Assembly (NCBI GenBank): GCA_010093605.1
Contig: MU004196.1
Coordinates: 704,606-768,605, forward strand
DNA: 64,000 nt
From: Lophium mytilinum
Taxonomy: Eukaryota
Direction: 5' to 3'
Position numbers and translations under genes: made by a program. Below the pieces are notes generated by a model that had not been told where the DNA came from, did not search any database, and was given only the letters and a program-made list of their open reading frames with translations. Below are positions 1,629 through 16,972 of the stretch, piece after piece (position 1 is the stretch's first letter; the number at the start of each line of letters is the position of its first letter).

Positions 1629-4554
1629 ATGGACGGAGCCGGCCAGCCCAACCTGAGGGTCACCAGTACGTCTGCCTGAGCTGTCTCCTCCGTCAGACGC
1701 GAATGGCGATGCTAACAGAGCACAGTTATTGCTGCCGATGGCCTCTATAAGCGGGATGTCTTCCGTACGTACTCTCTAGGCAACATCGCATGACACCCCT
1801 CTCACATCTGATGTAGGATTTCCGGATCCGTTCGCCGTTGCAACGGTGAATGGCGAGCAGACACGCACCACCAGCGTAATCAAGAAGACGTTGAACCCCT
1901 ACTGGAACGAGAGCTTCGACATGTACGCCATTGCCGGTCCAAGCTTCGCCCCACCATGCATCATGCTGATAGTCATACTAGGAGAGTCACCGAGGAAAGC
2001 GTTCTGGCAGTCCAAATCTTTGACCAGAAGAAGTTCAAGAAAAAGGACCAGGGTTTCCTTGGCGTCATCAATGTCCGCATAGGGAGCGTGATTGACTTGG
2101 ACGCCGGCGGTGACGGTAGGGATTATTCCCCGCTTCGGCAAGGCTGTGCTAACGAGGACAGAAATGCTCACACGCGACCTCAAGAAGTCGAATGATAACA
2201 TGGTCGTGCACGGGAAGCTTATTCTTAATCTATCCACTAATCTAGCAACGCCCATCAATCCTCCCGCACAGGGTCCTCCTACAAATCGACCCTCGGTTTC
2301 AGCGCATTCGTCGGTGAACGGTCTACCTGCACAAGGAATGGCGACGCCTGTTCCGCAGCAGTCTGCGCCTTCTCTGCACCCCGATACGTATCCAGGAAAC
2401 CGTAACCCGATCCCGACGCAGCCTACTCCGCAAAGACTAAGTCAGCCTACACCTGTTGCTCCTCCAAACTCTTTGCCCCCCCCGCACTCGGCGAACGGAG
2501 CACAACCGAGGAGTGGGCCCGGATTCAGTGCATTTGAAGATGCTCAAGGCCGTCTGCCTCCGGGATGGGAACGCAGGGAGGATCATCTGGGACGTACATA
2601 CTATGTTGATCACAATACGAGGCAAACCACATGGATCAGGCCCGGCGCTGGGTTCAACGAAGCCGACCAGAGGACAGCGCTGGCTGCTCAAACCCAGGTA
2701 GAACGTACTCGACATCAAAACCGAATGTTGCCAGAGGACAGGACAGGCGCCAATTCGCCAACTTTGTCCGACCGACAGCCGTCTCCTCCTGGTGGCACCG
2801 CAAATGCTGTCTCGATGATGGCAACGGGCGCTACGACTGCGGGCACTGGCGAACTACCGTCTGGATGGGAGCAACGCCATACGCCTGAGGGACGTGCATA
2901 CTTCGTGGACCACAACACGCGGACAACTACTTGGGTGGATCCGCGGCGCCAGCAGTACATTCGGATGTATGGAGGGCAAAATGCGAACAACAGCACTATT
3001 CAGCAGCAGCCTGTCTCCCAACTTGGACCCCTGCCTAGTGGATGGGAAATGCGTCTTACGAACACTGCTCGAGTCTATTTCGTGGATCACAATACCAAGA
3101 CCACCACTTGGGATGATCCTAGATTGCCGTCGTCACTGGACCAAAATGTGCCACAGTACAAGCGTGATTTCAGGCGGAAGTTGATCTACTTCCGTTCGCA
3201 ACCTGCGCTTCGGATTGTGTCTGGACAGTGCCATGTCAAGGTTCGGAGAACTCACATTTTCGAAGATTCGTACCATGAGATCATGCGGCAGAGCGCTGCT
3301 GATCTCAAGAAACGACTAATGATCAAATTCGATGGTGAAGACGGTTTGGATTATGGCGGTCTTTCTCGGTTTGTGCCCCTACTTTGATTGACTAGAGGCG
3401 TAACGAGGCTAACAATCATGCAGAGAGTTCTTCTTCCTCCTTTCCCACGAAATGTTTAATCCTTTCTACTGCCTGTTCGAGTATTCCGCGCACGACAACT
3501 ACACTCTTCAGATCAATCCTCATTCCGGCATAAATCCCGAGCATTTGAATTACTTCAAGTTTATTGGCCGAGTGGTTGGTTTGGCAATCTTCCACCGACG
3601 ATTCTTAGATGCTTTCTTCATCGGAGCTTTCTACAAGATGATTCTCCGCAAAAAGGTGGCGCTTCAGGACATGGAGGGTGTTGATGCCGACTTCCATCGC
3701 AATCTTGAGTGGATGTTGTGAGTGCCAACTTGATGCTCTTCGAAGACCCCGATTAACAATCTCTTTAGGAATAACGATATCACTGATGCTCTAGAGCTGA
3801 CGTTCTCCACTGAAGACGAGCGATTCGGCGAGACTGTCAGCATTGAATTGAAGCCTGGAGGAGAGGAAATTGAGGTAACAAACGAGAACAAGCGAGAATA
3901 CGTCGAGTAAGTGAAGCCAGTGTTATTATGGAGCCAGAGACTAACGCTAGACCAGCCTCATTACGGAATGGCGAATTGAAAAGCGTGTTGAGGAGCAGTT
4001 CTCGGCTTTCATATCAGGCTTCCACGAGCTGATTCCCGCAGATCTCGTCAACGTCTTTGACGAGCGCGAGTTGGAGTTGCTCATTGGCGGTATCGCTGAC
4101 ATTGATGTCGACGACTGGAAGAAGCATACTGACTACCGTGGCTACACCGAGAACGACGAAGTTATTGCGAACTTCTGGAAGGTTAGTACTAGTCTCTATT
4201 GGTTGACGTATCAAGATGCTGACTTTTACGCAGTGCATTCGGAGCTGGGATGCGGAACAGAAATCCCGCTTGTTGCAATTCGCAACCGGTACCTCGCGTA
4301 TTCCCGTCAACGGCTTTAAGGATCTGCAAGGAAGTGACGGCCCGAGGAGGTTTACGATCGAGAAAGCCGGAGAGCCTAATCAATTACCGAAGTCCCATAC
4401 ATGGTTAGTACACTTGGGAATTTTACCGACGGGCATGGCTAATTCGAGGAACAGTTTCAATCGTCTCGATCTTCCCCCATACAAGTCGTTTGATGCTCTG
4501 AATGGAAAGTTGACAATTGCCGTTGAAGAGACGGTCGGATTCGGACAAGAGTAG
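1629..4554 (+). CDS. RSP5: NEDD4-family HECT E3 ubiquitin ligase (C2 - 3xWW - HECT), multi-exon
   Basis: Spliced N-terminus [36 protein letters not shown] (C2); three WW domains ([30 protein letters not shown]); HECT motifs [14 protein letters not shown] and [16 protein letters not shown]; ends ETVGFGQE*. Introns GT-AG. Confidence 0.97.
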
Positions 4555-6470: not shown

Positions 6471-7781
6471 TTGAACTTTTGAAGGGGAGACTAAGAGAAA
6501 GAGAGGAGAGTGGGGATTGGATGTTGGGGTAAAAACGGGGATAGTTGTATACTTAATTCTTAATGTGGATTAGACTGTGCTGGACTGGAGAAGGAAGGGG
6601 TGACGTTGATATGTGGAGGTGGTGGTGACTTTTGGTTATGTAGTTTTACTATGCTAGAGCAGCCTTTTGTGAGGATATTTGTAGTGAATGGAGGTGTGGG
6701 GCTTCGTAATAGTGATGCAGATGTTCTGAGTAATGCTCTGACAAATGAAGGGCAGTAGCAGAAGGCTAGTACGCCCTCATGAGGACGCATAGTAAGTGTG
6801 TATACTTACCTGCCTTTGTGGGAGGTCTCTCGATACGTATAAGGGAATCTGCCGAGCTGTACCTTACATATTGTGAGCCAGTCTGTGACCTTGCCGAGCC
6901 ACTCCAACGGCATCATCTGTAGAGGTTGTGACAAGGTATATGATATGAATATGGTAGGATAAAGATTGTAAGTCACTCTTAATCCCAACATTGGCTGCAG
7001 TCCACTTCTCTGTCCCTGAAAGTATCGTAGAGTGTACACTGTCTTACTGTAGCTAGCTGGACGTACCAAGTTTAGTCGAGACCACAGGTAGGTATAAGAG
7101 TCGATCGAAGTGTATCATGTCTTCAGCAATCGATGCGAAGTCGGTATACCCAGTTTAGAACTTAGCCGGTGCCCGGGCTGTCGGAATCAAAGGGCACGGA
7201 ACCGAGCAGCGCCTTGTTCGATACAGACCCCGTGACTGGTGGTCGTCGTTCCCCCGCGATCCTTCATGGAGATTGCTGCCGCGATTTGTCCGGGGAGTGC
7301 GTAGATCCTTGAATGGTGACGTGCTGGCAGCTTGTCTCCGCACTTCACCATCTTCTGCCCAATGACGCCGGCTGAAACAAGCTATCCAGTCGCAACCCAC
7401 CGAGCATCACTCCGCACACCGCACGATGCCCGCGCTGGCCGCCGCCCGGGTCTTGCTAAACGCCAAGCGGAAAACTCTGGGGACTAGTCATTCCCAAGAA
7501 CACTTTCCGGGCCGATGACTGACAGCTAAATCCCGCTGTCGGCGTAGAGATCGACTTCTCCAGCTGCCACGGTGCCATTGCCGCGGGATGCAACCTCCTG
7601 TTCTCTTTTGCTTTTCTTGTGCCTACCCGTCGTCATCGTCTGCGACTTTTCTGTTTGTCTCCTCCTTCGTGGAGGTCATGTTGGGCACGTTGGTCACAAT
7701 CTCAAGACATCCAGCAAACGGCAGCGCTTTCTTCCATAATTCTTAGACCATGGTCCAAGGCACATCTGCAACGCTTCCAAC

Positions 7782-10538
7782 ATGGCGAACGAAACCAGCG
7801 GGGACCACCATGTCGTATCAAGAGGTCCTGTCGTGCTGGGCGTTACAACTGCCACGATCGTGTGCGCCACCGTCTTCGTTGTGCTACGTTTGATCTCGAG
7901 GATTGGAATTGTGCGAAGAGTTGGCTGGGATGACCACTTCATCATTCTCGCTTGGGTAGGTTAATCATGGGTTCGTAGTTTTGAGTATTGAGAAACTAAC
8001 CGTAGCACTGTACAGGTCCTCGCATTCGGCACTTCTTTCTCCATTTGCTACGGGACGTCCGTTGGCCTTGGACGACACGAGGTGGATGTTCCAGCAGACT
8101 GGGATCCTATTCTAACCAGGATGGAATATGTCTTCTCGGTTCTCTATGTCGGTACCCGTATTCCATGTGCTTGAAAAAGACACTGAGACAGGCAGAACCC
8201 AGCCTTGATGGCTACTAAGACGTCTATCCTGATCTTTTATTTGTCTCTTTCCAAGACCCAGAAGATCTTCCGTACCGCCACCATTGCGACCCTCGCCGTA
8301 GTCAATATTGGCGGATTAGCGTTGACGCTCCTCAATGTTGTCCAATGCCGACCTGTCGGTGCCGCTTTCGATAATCCGGTCCCGGAAAGTGCAACTTGCA
8401 CAGACATTATTACCATTTACCTTTCTTCGGCGCCATTGAACATCATCACGGATCTGGCAATTCTGTTCCTTCCAATGCCAATACTAACCAGTATGCGTCT
8501 GCCAAAGAAACAAAAGATAATACTCGTCGTCACCTTCGGGTTCGGTATTTTCGTCGCCGTTGTTGATGTAGTTCGAATTGCATACCTTCAATCCGCAGCT
8601 CGCACGCACCTGCGAAACGTTGAAGACAACAGTGACCCGACAGGAAATGACTCCCGGAATTCGGAGAATGATTTCAGCTGGTATGCTTCTTTCTCGCTGA
8701 TGTTTTCAGCCATCGAGGTAAATGTCGGACTCATGTGTGCCTGCGTGCCAGCCATGAAGCCCCTAGTGTCTCGCTTTATGCCTCACTTACTGCGGGACAA
8801 TAGCCAAACCGATAAGACAGCACTCACGACTGGAAGCGGATTGAACCACCCTGATATTGCAAATGGGAATCTACAGGCACCCTCTCAGGACTTACCAACA
8901 AGGCCAGCACCTGTTGCCACCCCCGGAGGCGCCAACCCAGCAGCCACGTTAGGAGCAATTTCAGGTGGAAATGGCGATGGGACAATGGGTATGATGGATT
9001 TCCTAACGACACCAGATATGACCGAGCTACCGGTAGAAAGGACGAATACGTATGCGACGGCCGCTACAGCAGGGAGTGCTCCGCCCTTCTTCGACTTTGT
9101 GACATTTAACAAAAAGAAGAGCATTGTCAACATGACGACGAGGGAAAGCATCTATCCAGTGATGATGGTCACCGTCTTGTTCTTCGTCTGGGGATTTGCA
9201 TATGGACTCCTGGACACACTTAATGCTCAGTTCCAGACTGTTGCTCACATGTCATCCGCACAGTTCATCGGTCTTCACAGCGCATACTATGGAGGCTATT
9301 TCTTGGGACCGCTGACTTTTGGCCGGCTCGTCTTCAAGTACTGGGGCTTCAAAGCTTGTTACACCGTTGGACTAGTCATATACGCGTGTGGCACTTTGGT
9401 CTTCTGGCCTTCTGCCGTTCTGACATCCTTTCCCGCTTTCTTCATCTCAAACTTCATTGTTGGCCTCGGCCTATCTACGCTGGAGATCTCAGCGAACCCT
9501 TTCATTACACTTTGTGGGCCGCCGGAATGGGCAGAGGTTCGACTCAATCTCTCTCAAGGCTTCCAAGCGATTGGGACCGTCGTTTCTCCGTTGCTCGCAA
9601 AGAAAGTTCTCTTCAAAGCCTCGGCCGACTCCCTCATCGACGTTCAATGGACCTATCTTGGCCTCTCGCTGTTTACATTTGCTCTCGCAATTGTTTACTT
9701 CTACATCCCCCTACCAGAAGCCAATGATGACGAGCTAGAAGAAGCATCTCAACGCATCAACACTCCAAATACGGAAAAGCTTCTCAACGTGAAAGTGATA
9801 TGGATCACTCTTGGTCTTGGATTATTCTCTCAAATGTGCTACGTCGGTGGTCAAGAGAGCATTTCCACAACATTTGCGGCGTATGTCACCAGGATTTACC
9901 CAGGCCTCAACATGGTAAACCTCCAGGCAATCGGCCATACAGCCTTCGCCCTCTCGCGCTTCCTCGCTGCCGGTGCCGGATTATGGATCAAGCCACGCTA
10001 CCAGCTCCTCTTTTTCTACCTCGGCGCTATTGCGTTCGCGGTAGCATCTATGAATGGACATGGCACCGCACCTGCCGCGCTCGTCGTCACGCTCTTCTTC
10101 TTCGAAGGACCGATATTCGCCCTTGTCTTCGCGCAATCGATTCGTGGACTTGGAAGGAATGCGAAAATGGCCAGCGTGCTACTCACCTCAGCGATAGGTG
10201 GCGGAGCAGTATTCCCTCCTATTGCATATGGTGCGATGAAGGCAAAGAACGTGCAGTATGCGTATTGCGTGGTGGCGGCTGCATTTGCTGCTGGCGCTTT
10301 GTTCCCGATATGGCTGAATTTATCGCCTCTCGCAAAAGCGATAGTTGATCCTAAGAAATATGACGATTCCCGAGCAGTCGGAGATGCGGGAATAGAAGTA
10401 GATGGGAAGAGACACCGGAGCTTCTCTTCATTTAGTGACAGTATTAAGAGGAGGTGGCGGAAGGACGGTGCCAAAGATGACCCTCCTCAAGCTGAGCACA
10501 AGGAGAGGAGCTCATGGCCGCCTGTCTCGATTGTATGA
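7782..10538 (+). CDS. Fusion protein: N-terminal PTH11-like (fungal rhodopsin-type 7TM) domain plus C-terminal FucP/glucose-galactose-type MFS permease, ~882 aa
   Basis: Exons 7782-7955, 8016-8147, 8196-10538. PTH11-like motifs LRLISR..VGWDD, GLGRH, TKTSILIFYL, NIITDLAILFLPMP, SAIEVNVGLMCACVP. In the same exon, FucP-type motifs LFFVWGFAYGLLDTLN, LEISANPFITLCGP, RLNLSQGFQAIG. Confidence 0.9.
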
Positions 10539-11057
10539 GCTACACAGAGTTCTCTTTCATATGTTATGCTTTGCAGAACTCAGGTTCCGCTCAATTGTTC
10601 TCTTTTAAAGACGGCGCACGGAGTTACTGGAGAGTGACCGTACGCTAGACTCCCAAACTTCATTTATCCATGGGCGATTTGGGAGGTAGTCGTATTCGCA
10701 TTTACATGGGATGGAAGCCACGGCCGTACGAAGACATTTGCTTCATTGTTGTATGTACATATGATCGATCGATACCCTGTACTTAGTTTCTTTATAAGTG
10801 TATATAGAGAAGACAATACTTCTGAGAAAAAGAGGAAATGTATAAACTTGCAAGGGATATAGCTTTAAAGAGCAGTACCCACTACTTGACATGCGCGCAG
10901 AGAATAGTATGCGAGCCACACAGCTAAATCGAGTTTGTCATCACTCCCCCAAGTCTTGGCACTGAGGTCATCTAATCCAATATTCGATGCGGCGAATGTC
11001 GGGAGTGCCTTTCACCACAACCTCCAACCTCACCTACCTCCCACCTAAACCGCCACC

Positions 11058-11729
11058 ATGTTCGCACGACCAGCAATCTCTTCCGTATGCCCACTATCCC
11101 AATGCTTCATACTCCCTTTGGAACCCTTTCTAATTAGCTCAACTACAGGCTCTCCGGACAGCTACCCGCACCACACCTCTCATGCGCCCACTCCCCACAC
11201 CCCGCTTCCTCACCCCGTTCCAAGCGCGCCTGCTCTCTTCCGAAACCCGCACCGCGATCGATAAGGCTGTGAGCTCGGCGCCTGTCGTGCTGTTCATGAA
11301 GGGCACCCCCGAGACGCCGCAGTGCGGGTTCTCGCGCGCGAGCATCCAGATCCTGGGGATGCAGGGGGTGGATCCGGGGAAGTTTACGGCGTTTAATGTG
11401 CTGGAGGATGAGGAGTTGAGGGCTGGTGAGTTGCAGTTTTCTGCTTTGTAAACTGGGAGGGTTGGGGTGGGAGTGGATGGGGTTGAGGTGGCGTCGGCTG
11501 AAATTACATATGTATTGGTCGTTTGGATGCTAATCGTTTATTTTATGTTGTAGGGATTAAGGAATATTCAGAGTGGCCGACGATACCCCAGCTTTACGTG
11601 GATAAGGAGTTTGTGGGGGGCTGCGATATCTTGATGTCGATGCATCAGGATGGGTCGCTGGCGAAGATGTTGGAGGAGAAGGGCGTGCTTGTTGAGCCGG
11701 GAGAAGAGGAGCCGGCGCCGAAGGAGTAG
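11058..11729 (+). CDS. GRX5: Mitochondrial monothiol glutaredoxin (CGFS type), 3 exons
   Basis: Arg-rich presequence; [47 protein letters not shown]. Confidence 0.96.
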
Positions 11730-13983: not shown

Positions 13984-15233
13984 CTACGCCGACGCCGCCT
14001 CGTCGAAAGAACTCTTAAACGTCCACCGCGCGTCCTCACCTTGTGTGAACGGCACTCCAAGCTCGAACAGCCTTAGCACTACATCTGAGAAGTCCTTGAA
14101 GAAGGCGTCATTGTCCCTGGCGTACTTGTCGACATACTGCTTAAAGCTCTTGTCCTTAACCAGAGCCATATCAGTCGGCAGCATCATGAGTGTCTTAGTC
14201 GTGACATCCTCAAACTGCTTGGGGCCGTTCCACTTCTTGTTTTGCCACTTCTCCTCTACTAGCAGCTTGAAGTAGTCGTTCGTGAGGGTGGTCGGGGAGA
14301 AGGTCCAGGGTCCATCGAAGCCGGAGCGGTCGGTGTGGCAGCGGCCTAGAGCGTGGGCGCCGGATAGAGCGACGATTTCTTGGTCATTGAAGCCCATGCG
14401 GCCGAAGATGGCGCGGAGGTGCTTTTGCTCCTTGGAGGCGTCAGGCAGGCGGCCGTCAGGCGTGCAGAAGGATAGATCGCGGTCGGAGCGGCCGGGGCGG
14501 TAGGGGATGTGAGGGCCCTGCATTTCTTGGATGGCGGTGACGCCGGCGAGAATCCAGAGGTCGGAGTAGCTAATCCAGGGGTATGCCTCTGGCGGAATGT
14601 TAGCATGCTATTGGGCGTATATGATGGTGGAGGAGAGAGTGAATTACCTTTGACGGGCTCAAGGAAATCACGGGCAGCTTTCAGGCCAGCATTGGCTCCA
14701 TGGTCACCCTCCGGGGCAAACCTCATGGTCGCACCGTTCGAGCCTCCAGTACCAGTCTCCTTGTCGTACCTGCATATCGTCAGTCTGAGGCCTGTATCCG
14801 GCTCCGGAAAGTATGCCTGTACTCACGTTCCGCTACAATGCCATGCCAACCTCACCAGCACGGGGCCATAGCTGCCATCGTCGTACTCGTCCTTTTCCTC
14901 TAGAAGCTTTGCGATGGTCTTGTAGACCTTTTGGTAGTCCTCGTACTTGGGCTCAAAGGGGCCCTTGGTCTTCTCCTCGGCTTTGGCAAACAAACCCGGG
15001 TTCTGGCTATAAGCGTAGTACCCTCCGCCACCAAGAGCTGCCAACCCAATGCCCCAGATCAGTCCACTACTGCCGCCAGCTTTGGGAGCGCCGCTGTCAG
15101 CATAGCCCCGACGTGATTGCTGGAAAGTCTGGCGAGGGACGACTAGGCGCGAGTTGCGGGTGACGGTGGTCTTGAAAGTCGCGGGGGAGCTGCGCAGGGC
15201 GCTGCGGGTGAAGGATCGCGCTGCGGTGGCCAT
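13984..15233 (-). CDS. CCP1: Mitochondrial cytochrome c peroxidase, 3 exons
   Basis: Presequence plus TM segment; [62 protein letters not shown]. Confidence 0.97.
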
Positions 15234-16007: not shown

Positions 16008-16237
16008 CTGATTACGCTCATCGATGTGAGATATTTCTGATGCACCCGAGCATTTCTTAATAGTGTATCACGATCTGTTGGGGTATTTTTGATACATTTA
16101 TTTAGGGTAAGTTCTGATGATGTAAGCATCGGGATTTCTTTTCGCCGGTATCCAGCTTCCGAACGATCATGCCACGAGTCAACGTGACGCCACCTTTAGC
16201 ATCCTCTTTATGCAGCGTAACCACTCCCGAGATCAAG

Positions 16238-16972
16238 ATGTCGCTTCCAAACATCTGGCATCACCGTCGGGTGGCTGAGAGCTCGGCGAAGGCATGCTGG
16301 ATCTGCTACAAGCCCACTTCTAGCGTCCTTATTACACCAGATAACAAGGTAATCAAAACTAGCTGTCCTATATCGACAGCCAGCTTACAATTTCCAAGGA
16401 CTTCTTTTATATCTGCGTTGGCCATCTCAAAGATCGGCAGTTTTGCCGAGCTGACGAGGATGAGGTTGCCGCTGCTGCGGCCAAGAAAGCTAAAGAAGAG
16501 CTCGATCGTGAGATCGAAAAGGTGAAGCAAGAATACGAGGAAAAGCAGAAACGAAAGAAAGAGAAGCGGAAAGAGAAAGCAAAGGAGAAGGGCAAAGACA
16601 AGGAGAAAGACAAAGATGCCAAAAAGAATGATGATGAAGAAGACACTAAAGATGAGAAGGCAAAGGATGACAAGGTGAACTCGCACAGACGCTCTCAGTC
16701 AAAGACGACTAATGATTCTTGATAAAGATCAAGCAGCTCTCTGAAGCCAAAGATGCTCCAAAAGCAGACGATGGACCACGCATCTATTCTCTCACGAAGT
16801 ACGCTCTTGCCAGTTTCTAATCGAAGCATCGCGGATCGGCGACTGACTTGCCCTTAGGAATTTCTACCAAATGCGTGTTGACCGAATCCGAAACGCTGAG
16901 ATTGCGAAACGGAGTAGAGAACGTCTTAAGAGCCCTACCGCTTTCCCATCTGTGCCTAGCGGCGATCTCTGA
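16238..16972 (+). CDS. VFA1: VPS4-associated protein 1 family (Vfa1/DUF1742), 4 exons
   Basis: MSLPNIWHHRRVAESSAKACWICYKPTSSVLITPDNK|DFFYICVGHLKDRQFC; K/E-rich coiled coil; ends FYQMRVDRIRNAEIAKRSRERLKSPTAFPSVPSGDL*. Confidence 0.88.

Follow-up and report, generated by a model that had tools for sequence, protein, structure and literature searches.

The window, as the whole stretch of DNA analysed here is called, comprises 64,000 nucleotides (nt) of Lophium mytilinum (assembly GCA_010093605.1, contig MU004196.1, positions 704,606 to 768,605 of the forward strand). Its positions 7782-10538 (+) carry a three-exon gene whose product of 882 amino acids (aa; 58+44+780) consists of a seven-transmembrane (7TM) domain of the PTH11 type, a linker and a major facilitator superfamily (MFS) permease related to FucP of Escherichia coli. 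The product is identical, letter for letter (100%), to the annotated protein P0001, which is publicly labelled 'MFS general substrate transporter [Lophium mytilinum]'. The gene is real, conserved and expressed, and one spliced mRNA gives a single 882-aa membrane protein with 19 helices. The features of the locus are as follows, where TM denotes a transmembrane helix and X1 and X3 are runs whose contigs match the window.

7400..7781, plus strand: 5' untranslated region (5'UTR), collinear with run X1's spliced contig at its record positions 2716-3270 of 3322
7782..7955, plus strand: exon 1, from the ATG at 7782 to the donor GTAGGT; residues 1-58, with an extracellular N-terminus of 14 residues, TM1 and the beginning of TM2
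7956..8015, plus strand: intron 1, 60 nt, GT..AG, with a CTAAC branch-point-like motif; absent from the X1 and X3 contigs
8016..8147, plus strand: exon 2, following CTAAC...CAG and ending at the donor GTCGGT; residues 59-102, with TM2 and the first part of TM3
8148..8195, plus strand: intron 2, 48 nt, GT..AG; absent from the X1 and X3 contigs
8196..10538, plus strand: exon 3, residues 103-882 and the stop codon; what remains of the 7TM domain, then linker, complete MFS domain and C-terminal tail, all in a single open frame
10539..10777, plus strand: 3' untranslated region (3'UTR), to the limit of the spliced X1 contig
7824..8792, plus strand: PTH11-type 7TM domain (PF20684), residues about 15-301, seven helices, broken by both introns
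8793..9137, plus strand: cytosolic linker, residues about 302-416 (115 aa) by AlphaFold helix boundaries
8985..9020, plus strand: conserved linker motif MGMMDFLTTPDM, which includes MGMMDFL and contains Met366, Met368 and Met369
9138..10322, plus strand: FHS/FucP-type MFS domain, residues about 417-811, 12 helices
9213..9215, plus strand: codon of Asp442, aligned with FucP Asp46 (H+ binding site)
9483..9485, plus strand: codon of Glu532, aligned with FucP Glu135 (substrate recognition)
10323..10535, plus strand: hydrophilic C-terminal tail, residues 812-882, with low model confidence from about residue 839

Gene model and transcript

In the raw sequence the frame 8187-10538 (+) stays open over 783 codons from stop to stop, and exon 3 translated alone is recognised by Pfam on both sides of the linker, with PF20684 at 1.8e-43 and PF07690 at 5.8e-15. 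This bears out a claim made earlier from the letters without database searches (referred to here as the sequence-only reading), according to which both domains and the linker lie in one uninterrupted exon, 8196-10538. The transcript is represented by a single 3322-nt contig of run X1, identical to the window with both introns removed, which spans 7400-10777 in three segments (7400-7954, 60 nt skipped, 8015-8147, 48 nt skipped, 8196-10777) and extends from the 5'UTR through both domains and the linker into the 3'UTR. Its splice joints, 7954/8015 (cut +1) and 8147/8196, are both of the GT..AG kind and are repeated in run X3, from a related organism at 90-99% identity. As the contig is devoid of introns, it is taken to derive from spliced RNA; the label 'RNA?' borne by run X1 is a guess, no run is recorded as RNA, and the complementary DNA origin is read from the missing introns. 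The depth of the contig is uninformative on the level of expression, and the contigs are uninformative on transcript ends.

The X1 contig reaches about 52 nt upstream of 7400, to about 7348, and the 5'UTR that it implies measures at least 382 nt, or about 434 nt with this overhang (7348-7781, +). Four upstream open reading frames (uORFs) started by ATG are found there, at 7362 (41 aa), 7426 (30 aa), 7588 (52 aa) and 7750 (47 aa), the last of which overlaps the main start codon. They may serve translational control, or the contig may have merged an overlapping upstream transcript.

The seven-helix half

The N-terminal half was described by the sequence-only reading as a PTH11-like 7TM domain, and this identification stands, for a form without the CFEM domain. 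On the full protein PF20684 (Fung_rhodopsin) matches residues 35-295 at 1.2e-59 (202.1 bits against a cut-off of 27) and is covered over positions 1-237 of 237. Seven hydropathy peaks lie within residues 17-286 and seven helices are present in the AlphaFold model. Loops rich in lysine and arginine (36-52, 116-129 and 200-209) follow TM1, TM3 and TM5, so that by the positive-inside rule, from which the orientation is read, the N-terminus of the domain lies outside and the linker in the cytosol, as the N-terminus of an MFS protein requires; the odd number of helices makes the fusion topologically clean. No CFEM domain is found by Pfam on the full protein, and 14-16 residues precede TM1 (family median 15). 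The identification as an orthologue of the CFEM-type Pth11 was dropped on this account in favour of a Pth11-like protein, and that as a light-sensing rhodopsin was dropped because the Pfam name 'Fungal rhodopsin' is historical.

In the family alignment 11 residues of the 7TM half are invariant, including Arg36, Asp51, Arg229 and, in the outside loop between TM4 and TM5, Cys153 and Cys170, and mean column conservation reaches 0.67 in this half, 0.71 and 0.54 in the two halves of the MFS domain and about 0.3 in the linker. By these alignment measures the conservation of the 7TM half equals that of the permease, and this half is under constraint. The Pth11-like class is fast-evolving, and the fused 7TM half seems far more conserved than is usual for it.

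The fold was searched with a model of P0258, an unaltered 7TM-only database relative which is 47% identical (predicted local distance difference test, pLDDT, 79). Among 48,161 chains compared by VIA-align, the best was the yeast pheromone receptor Ste2 (7ad3_B; Z 17.1, root-mean-square deviation 4.1, 246 residues aligned), followed by TAS2R14 and many other G-protein-coupled receptors (GPCRs), which make up nearly all of the top rows. The fold of the 7TM half so modelled is GPCR-like; likeness of fold by itself says nothing of function.

The permease half

On the full protein PF07690 (MFS_1) is found at residues 429-748 (5.7e-15). The FucP-type sugar permease proposed by the sequence-only reading holds as to kinship, with a qualification as to substrate. 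Nothing in the PDB matches by sequence at E<=0.01 except E. coli FucP, of the FHS family (TC 2.A.1.7), which aligns over about 390 residues (2e-33 to 4e-34; 3o7q 4.3e-34) and is also the best fold match of the MFS half by Foldseek (3o7p, E 2.1e-12, TM-score 0.79 by target, 24-25% identity). The best NCBIfam model is likewise fucP, with TIGR00885 scoring 147.7 bits against a cut-off of 280.4 and NF007524 scoring 119 against 427. As the score lies below the fucP equivalog cut-off, the protein is not to be named an L-fucose permease, and no substrate is assigned to it.

The excerpts of two papers give FucP Asp46 as the H+ binding site and Glu135 as involved in substrate recognition (PMC4882079, PMC3824880). 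Asp442 and Glu532 of the Lophium protein align with them, and the position of FucP Asn162 is occupied by Gln. Across 101 fused proteins the Asp46 position holds Asp in 33 and Asn in 58, the rest having Gly, Ser, Phe, Ala or Leu. It is Asp in all 25 Dothideomycete rows and Asn in 50 of the 52 Sordariomycete rows, and the other representatives show Asp, Asn, Ser, Gly, Ala, Phe or Leu. Among the standalone relatives listed as matches it is Asp in 118 of 120. The Glu135 position is Glu in 99/101 fused proteins and, among the same listed matches, in 120/120 standalone ones. Judging from these alignments, ligand binding looks conserved in the fused family and obligatory proton coupling does not.

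Linker, tail and overall architecture

The full-length AlphaFold2 model, built on an alignment (A1) of 101 full-length relatives, contains 7 + 12 = 19 transmembrane helices, in agreement with the approximately 19 anticipated from the letters; hydropathy gives the seven N-terminal segments and 11 of the 12 MFS helices. The model has a mean pLDDT of 84 and a predicted template modelling score (pTM) of 0.83, and 117 residues fall below a pLDDT of 50. The linker, which the sequence-only reading had put at some 110-120 aa, measures 115 aa by the AlphaFold boundaries and 136 aa (residues 287-422) by hydropathy, both in line with that estimate. It is predicted to be disordered, with pLDDT below 50 across most of 312-399, and in the family its length varies from 66 to 244 residues (median 134).

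The sequence of the linker is poorly conserved except for short motifs. The MGMMDFL pointed out earlier is indeed present, within 8985-9020; DFL (370-372) is kept in the family, F371 is nearly invariant, and a short helix is modelled at 368-373. A second conserved motif, F401/F403/V404, stands immediately before the MFS domain. In run X2, from a more distant organism, a 173-nt contig matches the window solely across the 36 nt encoding MGMMDFLTTPDM, with flanks that are unlike, and this motif stands out of the divergent linker even at the level of DNA.

The C-terminal tail of about 70 aa is cytosolic. The stretch of 73 residues that follows the final hydropathy segment contains 15 Lys/Arg and 12 Asp/Glu, and apart from a partly conserved E-H-x-E...W-P stretch near its end the tail is poorly conserved.

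For two halves left unplaced with respect to each other a pTM of about 0.55 would be expected (own arithmetic, d0 about 10 Å, 882 residues). As the model reaches 0.83 in spite of 117 residues below pLDDT 50, the halves do not seem to be randomly placed and the 7TM bundle appears set against the permease; the model suggests that the two halves pack together in the membrane. The model of the ESM Atlas itself superposes on that of a relative over 804 residues across both halves (TM-score 0.87). A complex prediction of 7TM residues 1-300 against MFS residues 398-825 (ESMFold2, run without an alignment) gave a score of 0.08 and a mark of 0.34, which is neutral on packing, and Foldseek with the full-length model returned MFS chains only, which is uninformative for the 7TM half.

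The fused family and its spread

The architecture is widespread. All 120 listed matches of the Lophium protein carry both PF20684 and PF07690 at 58-100% identity, the named ones being Dothideomycetes. With a second query, the divergent fused representative P0166 from the Sordariomycete Lasiosphaeria, PF20684 is present in 120/120 listed matches and both halves in 118/118 new ones (phmmer); named matches listed include Neurospora, Podospora, Fusarium, Colletotrichum, Diaporthe, Cytospora and many Xylariales and Hypocreales. In all 238 listed relatives checked, down to about 35-45% identity, one frame is open across the junction. Chance does not account for two domain matches of full length that share a frame and are conserved in hundreds of species.

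In a library clustered at 50% identity there are 310 matches at E<=1e-30, and the best 150 of these representatives divide into 88 with both halves, 53 with the MFS half only and 9 with the 7TM half only, most of the single-domain ones being short fragments. At least 18 of the 88 fused representatives are calls in the style of an open reading frame (ORF) that begin at the first Met of the exon-3 equivalent, from which it follows that other species, too, keep the junction within a single frame. Four clusters of the ESM Atlas have this pair of domains; the three shown have 60, 184 and 97 members, from Ascomycota. The sequence-only reading had allowed for similar fusions in automated annotations, and hundreds of them exist under varied names, such as 'MFS monosaccharide transporter-like', 'fucose permease' and 'Rhodopsin domain-containing protein'. 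It had also held that orthologues always split into two genes would speak against the fusion; across the family survey the fusion is kept. It can be said that the fused family is an old one of filamentous ascomycetes, with named members in the Dothideomycetes and Sordariomycetes.

In a further Atlas cluster, made up of 52 proteins from Ascomycota that are about 1015 aa long, CFEM and Fung_rhodopsin are joined to the N and C domains of a GMC oxidoreductase, and the Pth11-type 7TM domain seems to be a reusable module.

Standalone permeases and the origin of the fusion

The closest unfused relatives of the MFS half are standalone fungal FucP-like permeases of about 470-480 aa, for example P0220 of Mycena venus (37% identity), P0437 of Zopfia rhizophila and an Aspergillus 'putative L-fucose permease'. 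They share the key residues with the fused proteins and differ from them in forming a separate clade, in lacking PF20684, which is absent from all 120 standalone matches listed, and in varying far less in sequence. The one clean standalone clade, that of P0220 and its relatives, comprises uniform FucP-like permeases some 475 aa long that are present in Basidiomycota and Ascomycota, and both forms coexist in Zopfia rhizophila, Lindgomyces ingoldianus, Lophiotrema nucula and Clohesyomyces aquaticus. In a tree of the MFS domain from 50 complete fused and 20 standalone proteins, a single branch separates the two with an SH-like approximate likelihood ratio test (SH-aLRT) support of 100. On this tree the fused family is placed as a sister paralogue of the conserved standalone permease, and the tree, which has no outgroup, would fit one event of fusion provided that its root falls on the side of the standalone proteins.

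An earlier MFS tree of 79 rows, which included fragmentary gene calls, had MFS-only rows scattered among the fused ones, with 15 changes. Since the MFS-only group vanishes when only complete sequences are used, the scattered rows are read as truncated calls and not as fissions. P0175, P0184 and P0236 look complete, and for them true secondary fissions are possible.

Within the standalone clade Agaricomycete sequences are nested among Ascomycota, beside two Dothideomycete sequences, with supports of 83-98; the sequences concerned are P0430 and P0431 with P0220, P0399, P0410, P0415, P0421 and P0446. The cross-phylum identities of the standalone proteins are very high, at 66-71%, and the pattern may reflect horizontal transfer or unusually strong conservation.

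Genomic neighbourhood

The following genes were recognised around the fusion gene.

2092-4316, plus strand: Rsp5/NEDD4-type ubiquitin ligase gene, upstream; three WW domains (3.6e-37) and a HECT piece (4.3e-22)
11134-11448, plus strand: monothiol glutaredoxin-like gene, downstream; PF00462 (3.5e-07)
13984-14819, minus strand: haem peroxidase gene, downstream, split across at least two exons; PF00141 (2.7e-30)
16121-16522, plus strand: Vfa1-like gene, downstream; PF08432 (1.5e-12)

No sugar-catabolic or signalling cluster was found nearby, where 10 of the 18 ORFs scanned have no Pfam match. Ligases of the Rsp5/NEDD4 type drive the endocytosis of transporters in fungi; the adjacency of one to the fusion gene is probably coincidental.

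Relation to known systems

Fungal GPCR class XIV is made up of Magnaporthe oryzae Pth11 together with the Pth11-like proteins, and PF20684 occurs in it with or without CFEM (PF05730). The Lophium protein shares with them the full PF20684 profile, seven helices, an outside N-terminus and a GPCR-like fold, and the named relatives of the fusion all belong to the Pezizomycotina. Unlike Pth11, it is devoid of CFEM and is covalently joined to a 12-TM permease. As to the other half, the E. coli L-fucose:H+ symporter FucP (PDB 3O7Q/3O7P) of the FHS family is the nearest relative by sequence and fold and has the equivalents of both carboxylates, Asp46 and Glu135, from which the MFS half differs in its identity of only 24-25%, its score below the equivalog cut-off, the replacement of Asn162 by Gln and the fusion to a 7TM domain.

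In working principle the closest system is human LYCHOS/GPR155, in which a transporter fold and a GPCR fold are likewise united in one polypeptide; it is an analogue and not a homologue. LYCHOS has 17 helices against the 19 of the Lophium protein, carries a DEP domain and is lysosomal. Its transporter half is of the PIN/AEC type and comes first, in contrast to the Lophium protein, where the transporter half is MFS and the order of domains is reversed; neither a PIN-like transporter nor a DEP domain is present there, Pfam finding only PF20684 and PF07690. In the part of the 2024 Nature paper covered here LYCHOS/GPR155 is a PIN-like transporter-GPCR hybrid described as a nutrient sensor or 'transceptor' (PMC11525196).

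In the transceptors and transporter-like sensors of yeast the transporter itself signals without a domain of receptor fold, which distinguishes them from the Lophium protein with its separate fused 7TM module. Gap1, Pho84, Mep2 and Snf3/Rgt2 are examples. In the excerpted text of PMC3824880, proteins of transporter families are proposed to sense their substrates, and cytosolic extensions may relay the signal.

The sequence-only reading knew of no functional characterisation of such a fusion, and none was found in the literature searched here either. In full-text literature, subscription journals and supplements being outside the scope of the search, no paper describing a PTH11-permease fusion was found, nor any that pairs Pth11 with a fucose permease. 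A review of fungal GPCRs from 2026, in its available part, gives PF20684 under class XIV and is without 'MFS' or 'fused' (PMC13308352), the main text of a Neurospora GPCR survey is without fucose, MFS, permease or 'major facilitator', and a 2026 preprint on fungal modular rhodopsins has no mention of MFS or PTH11. In the portion covered of bioRxiv 2024.11.25.625238, MFS figures merely as a family that co-expands. The architecture is known already from public annotations and is apparently undescribed in print.

Possible function of the fused protein

The reading preferred here, tentatively and at slightly less than an even chance, is that of a sensor-transporter hybrid, in which the permease binds a small sugar and probably symports it, and the docked 7TM domain, the linker and the tail couple it to regulation or signalling. 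The MFS half would bind a small neutral sugar, and the Dothideomycete orthologue, which keeps the H+ and substrate carboxylates of FucP, would probably still perform sugar:H+ symport. The 7TM half would pack against the permease in the membrane and, together with the linker and the tail, could couple the occupancy or conformation of the permease to regulation or signalling, with a possible output through G proteins and cyclic AMP (cAMP). Such an output is reported for M. oryzae Pth11 itself in the available part of PMC13308352. The protein would then be a built-in hybrid of sensor and transporter, transceptor-like. The signalling step, the 'hard-wired transceptor' of the sequence-only reading, draws circumstantial support from the conservation of the 7TM half, from the modelled packing, from a repeated loss of the H+ site confined to the fused family and from the existence of a standalone paralogue.

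Several points weigh against the hybrid. Its functional steps are built on sequence, models and analogy, and the packing is read from a single pTM number. The GPCR-like fold was not recovered by Foldseek, which with the P0258 model gave nothing at E<=0.001 although its top rows were GPCRs, and a Z of 17 is only modestly above the value of about 14 to which chance can bring helical bundles. The linker and the tail yielded no known signalling motif, and the neighbouring genes (Rsp5-like E3, Grx5-like, peroxidase and Vfa1) are of a housekeeping kind and give no functional hint. According to the part of PMC13308352 covered, G-protein coupling is documented for very few members of the Pth11-like class and their ligands are unknown. 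As the contigs are blind to transcript starts, a shorter MFS-only transcript beginning at the Met codons of the linker is conceivable, as is cleavage within the disordered linker, and the two FucP carboxylates kept in the Lophium orthologue fit a plain transporter equally well.

Such a plain sugar:H+ permease, whose 7TM half would serve folding, stability, targeting to membrane domains or oligomerisation without any sensing, is unlikely, though still a serious contender. The retention of both carboxylates in the Lophium protein and in 25/25 Dothideomycete rows and the public annotation as a transporter agree with it, the 52 proteins in which PF20684 is fused to a GMC oxidoreductase suit a generic membrane module, and for hardly any PTH11-like protein has G-protein coupling been proved (PMC13308352, in the part available). 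Nevertheless, 68 of 101 fused proteins have lost the H+ site against 2 of 120 standalone ones, which argues against the fused family being simply another symporter, its 7TM half is conserved like the permease down to the Cys pair of the outside loop, and the same genomes already have a standalone permease. Snf3 and Rgt2, the yeast glucose sensors, are the model for a further explanation, a non-transporting sugar sensor whose MFS half only binds the ligand and whose 7TM half and tails relay the signal. This is improbable: the loss of the Asp46 carboxylate in most fused proteins with retention of the Glu135 equivalent, the long hydrophilic linker and tail and the coexisting standalone permease would all suit it, but the Lophium protein and its whole class keep the H+ site (25/25), and Asn at this site could equally give an uncoupled facilitator, nothing indicating a loss of transport.

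It is quite improbable that the gene yields two products, a PTH11-like protein and a permease freed by an internal start of transcription or translation at the linker Met codons or by proteolysis of the linker. The linker is disordered, 66-244 residues long and holds Met366, Met368 and Met369, some database entries begin in it (P0126, for instance), and internal starts would escape the contigs; against this, the frame is open across the junction in 238 listed relatives, which separate products would not need, the MFS-only entries lie singly beside fused sisters as expected of truncated gene calls, and the spliced contig runs without a break. A joining of two neighbouring genes through an error of assembly or annotation, already dismissed by the sequence-only reading, has nothing found in its favour and is virtually out of the question, for the raw sequence has no stop codon between the domains, the independent transcript contig spans both and matches at 100%, and the architecture recurs in hundreds of independently assembled genomes.

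Significance

According to the part of the 2026 review covered here, no other predicted receptor class of filamentous ascomycetes is as large as that of the Pth11-like proteins, which have roles in the infection of plants, insects and nematodes (PMC13308352). The fusion could show what this large orphan family does, as its permease half predicts a class of ligand and offers a direct handle that can be assayed in transport-null yeast. The natural series at the H+ site, with Asp in the Dothideomycetes and Asn in 50/52 Sordariomycete rows, supplies ready-made coupled and uncoupled versions, and the family is present in tractable fungi, namely species of Neurospora and Podospora. Surveys of receptors that require exactly seven helices would presumably miss a protein with 19.

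A bolder generalisation, with an outside chance of being right, treats the fusion as a 'Rosetta stone': PF20684 7TM domains may dock on, gate or read out MFS permeases rather than act mainly as classical GPCRs. If this were true, the free-standing Pth11-like proteins, of which each Pezizomycotina genome has dozens, would partner transporters in trans, the fused family would be the covalently fixed case and the fungal counterpart of LYCHOS, and the permease half would name the class of ligand, a small sugar, for at least this branch of receptors. The family itself would be a second, independent joining of a GPCR fold to a transporter fold after LYCHOS/GPR155.

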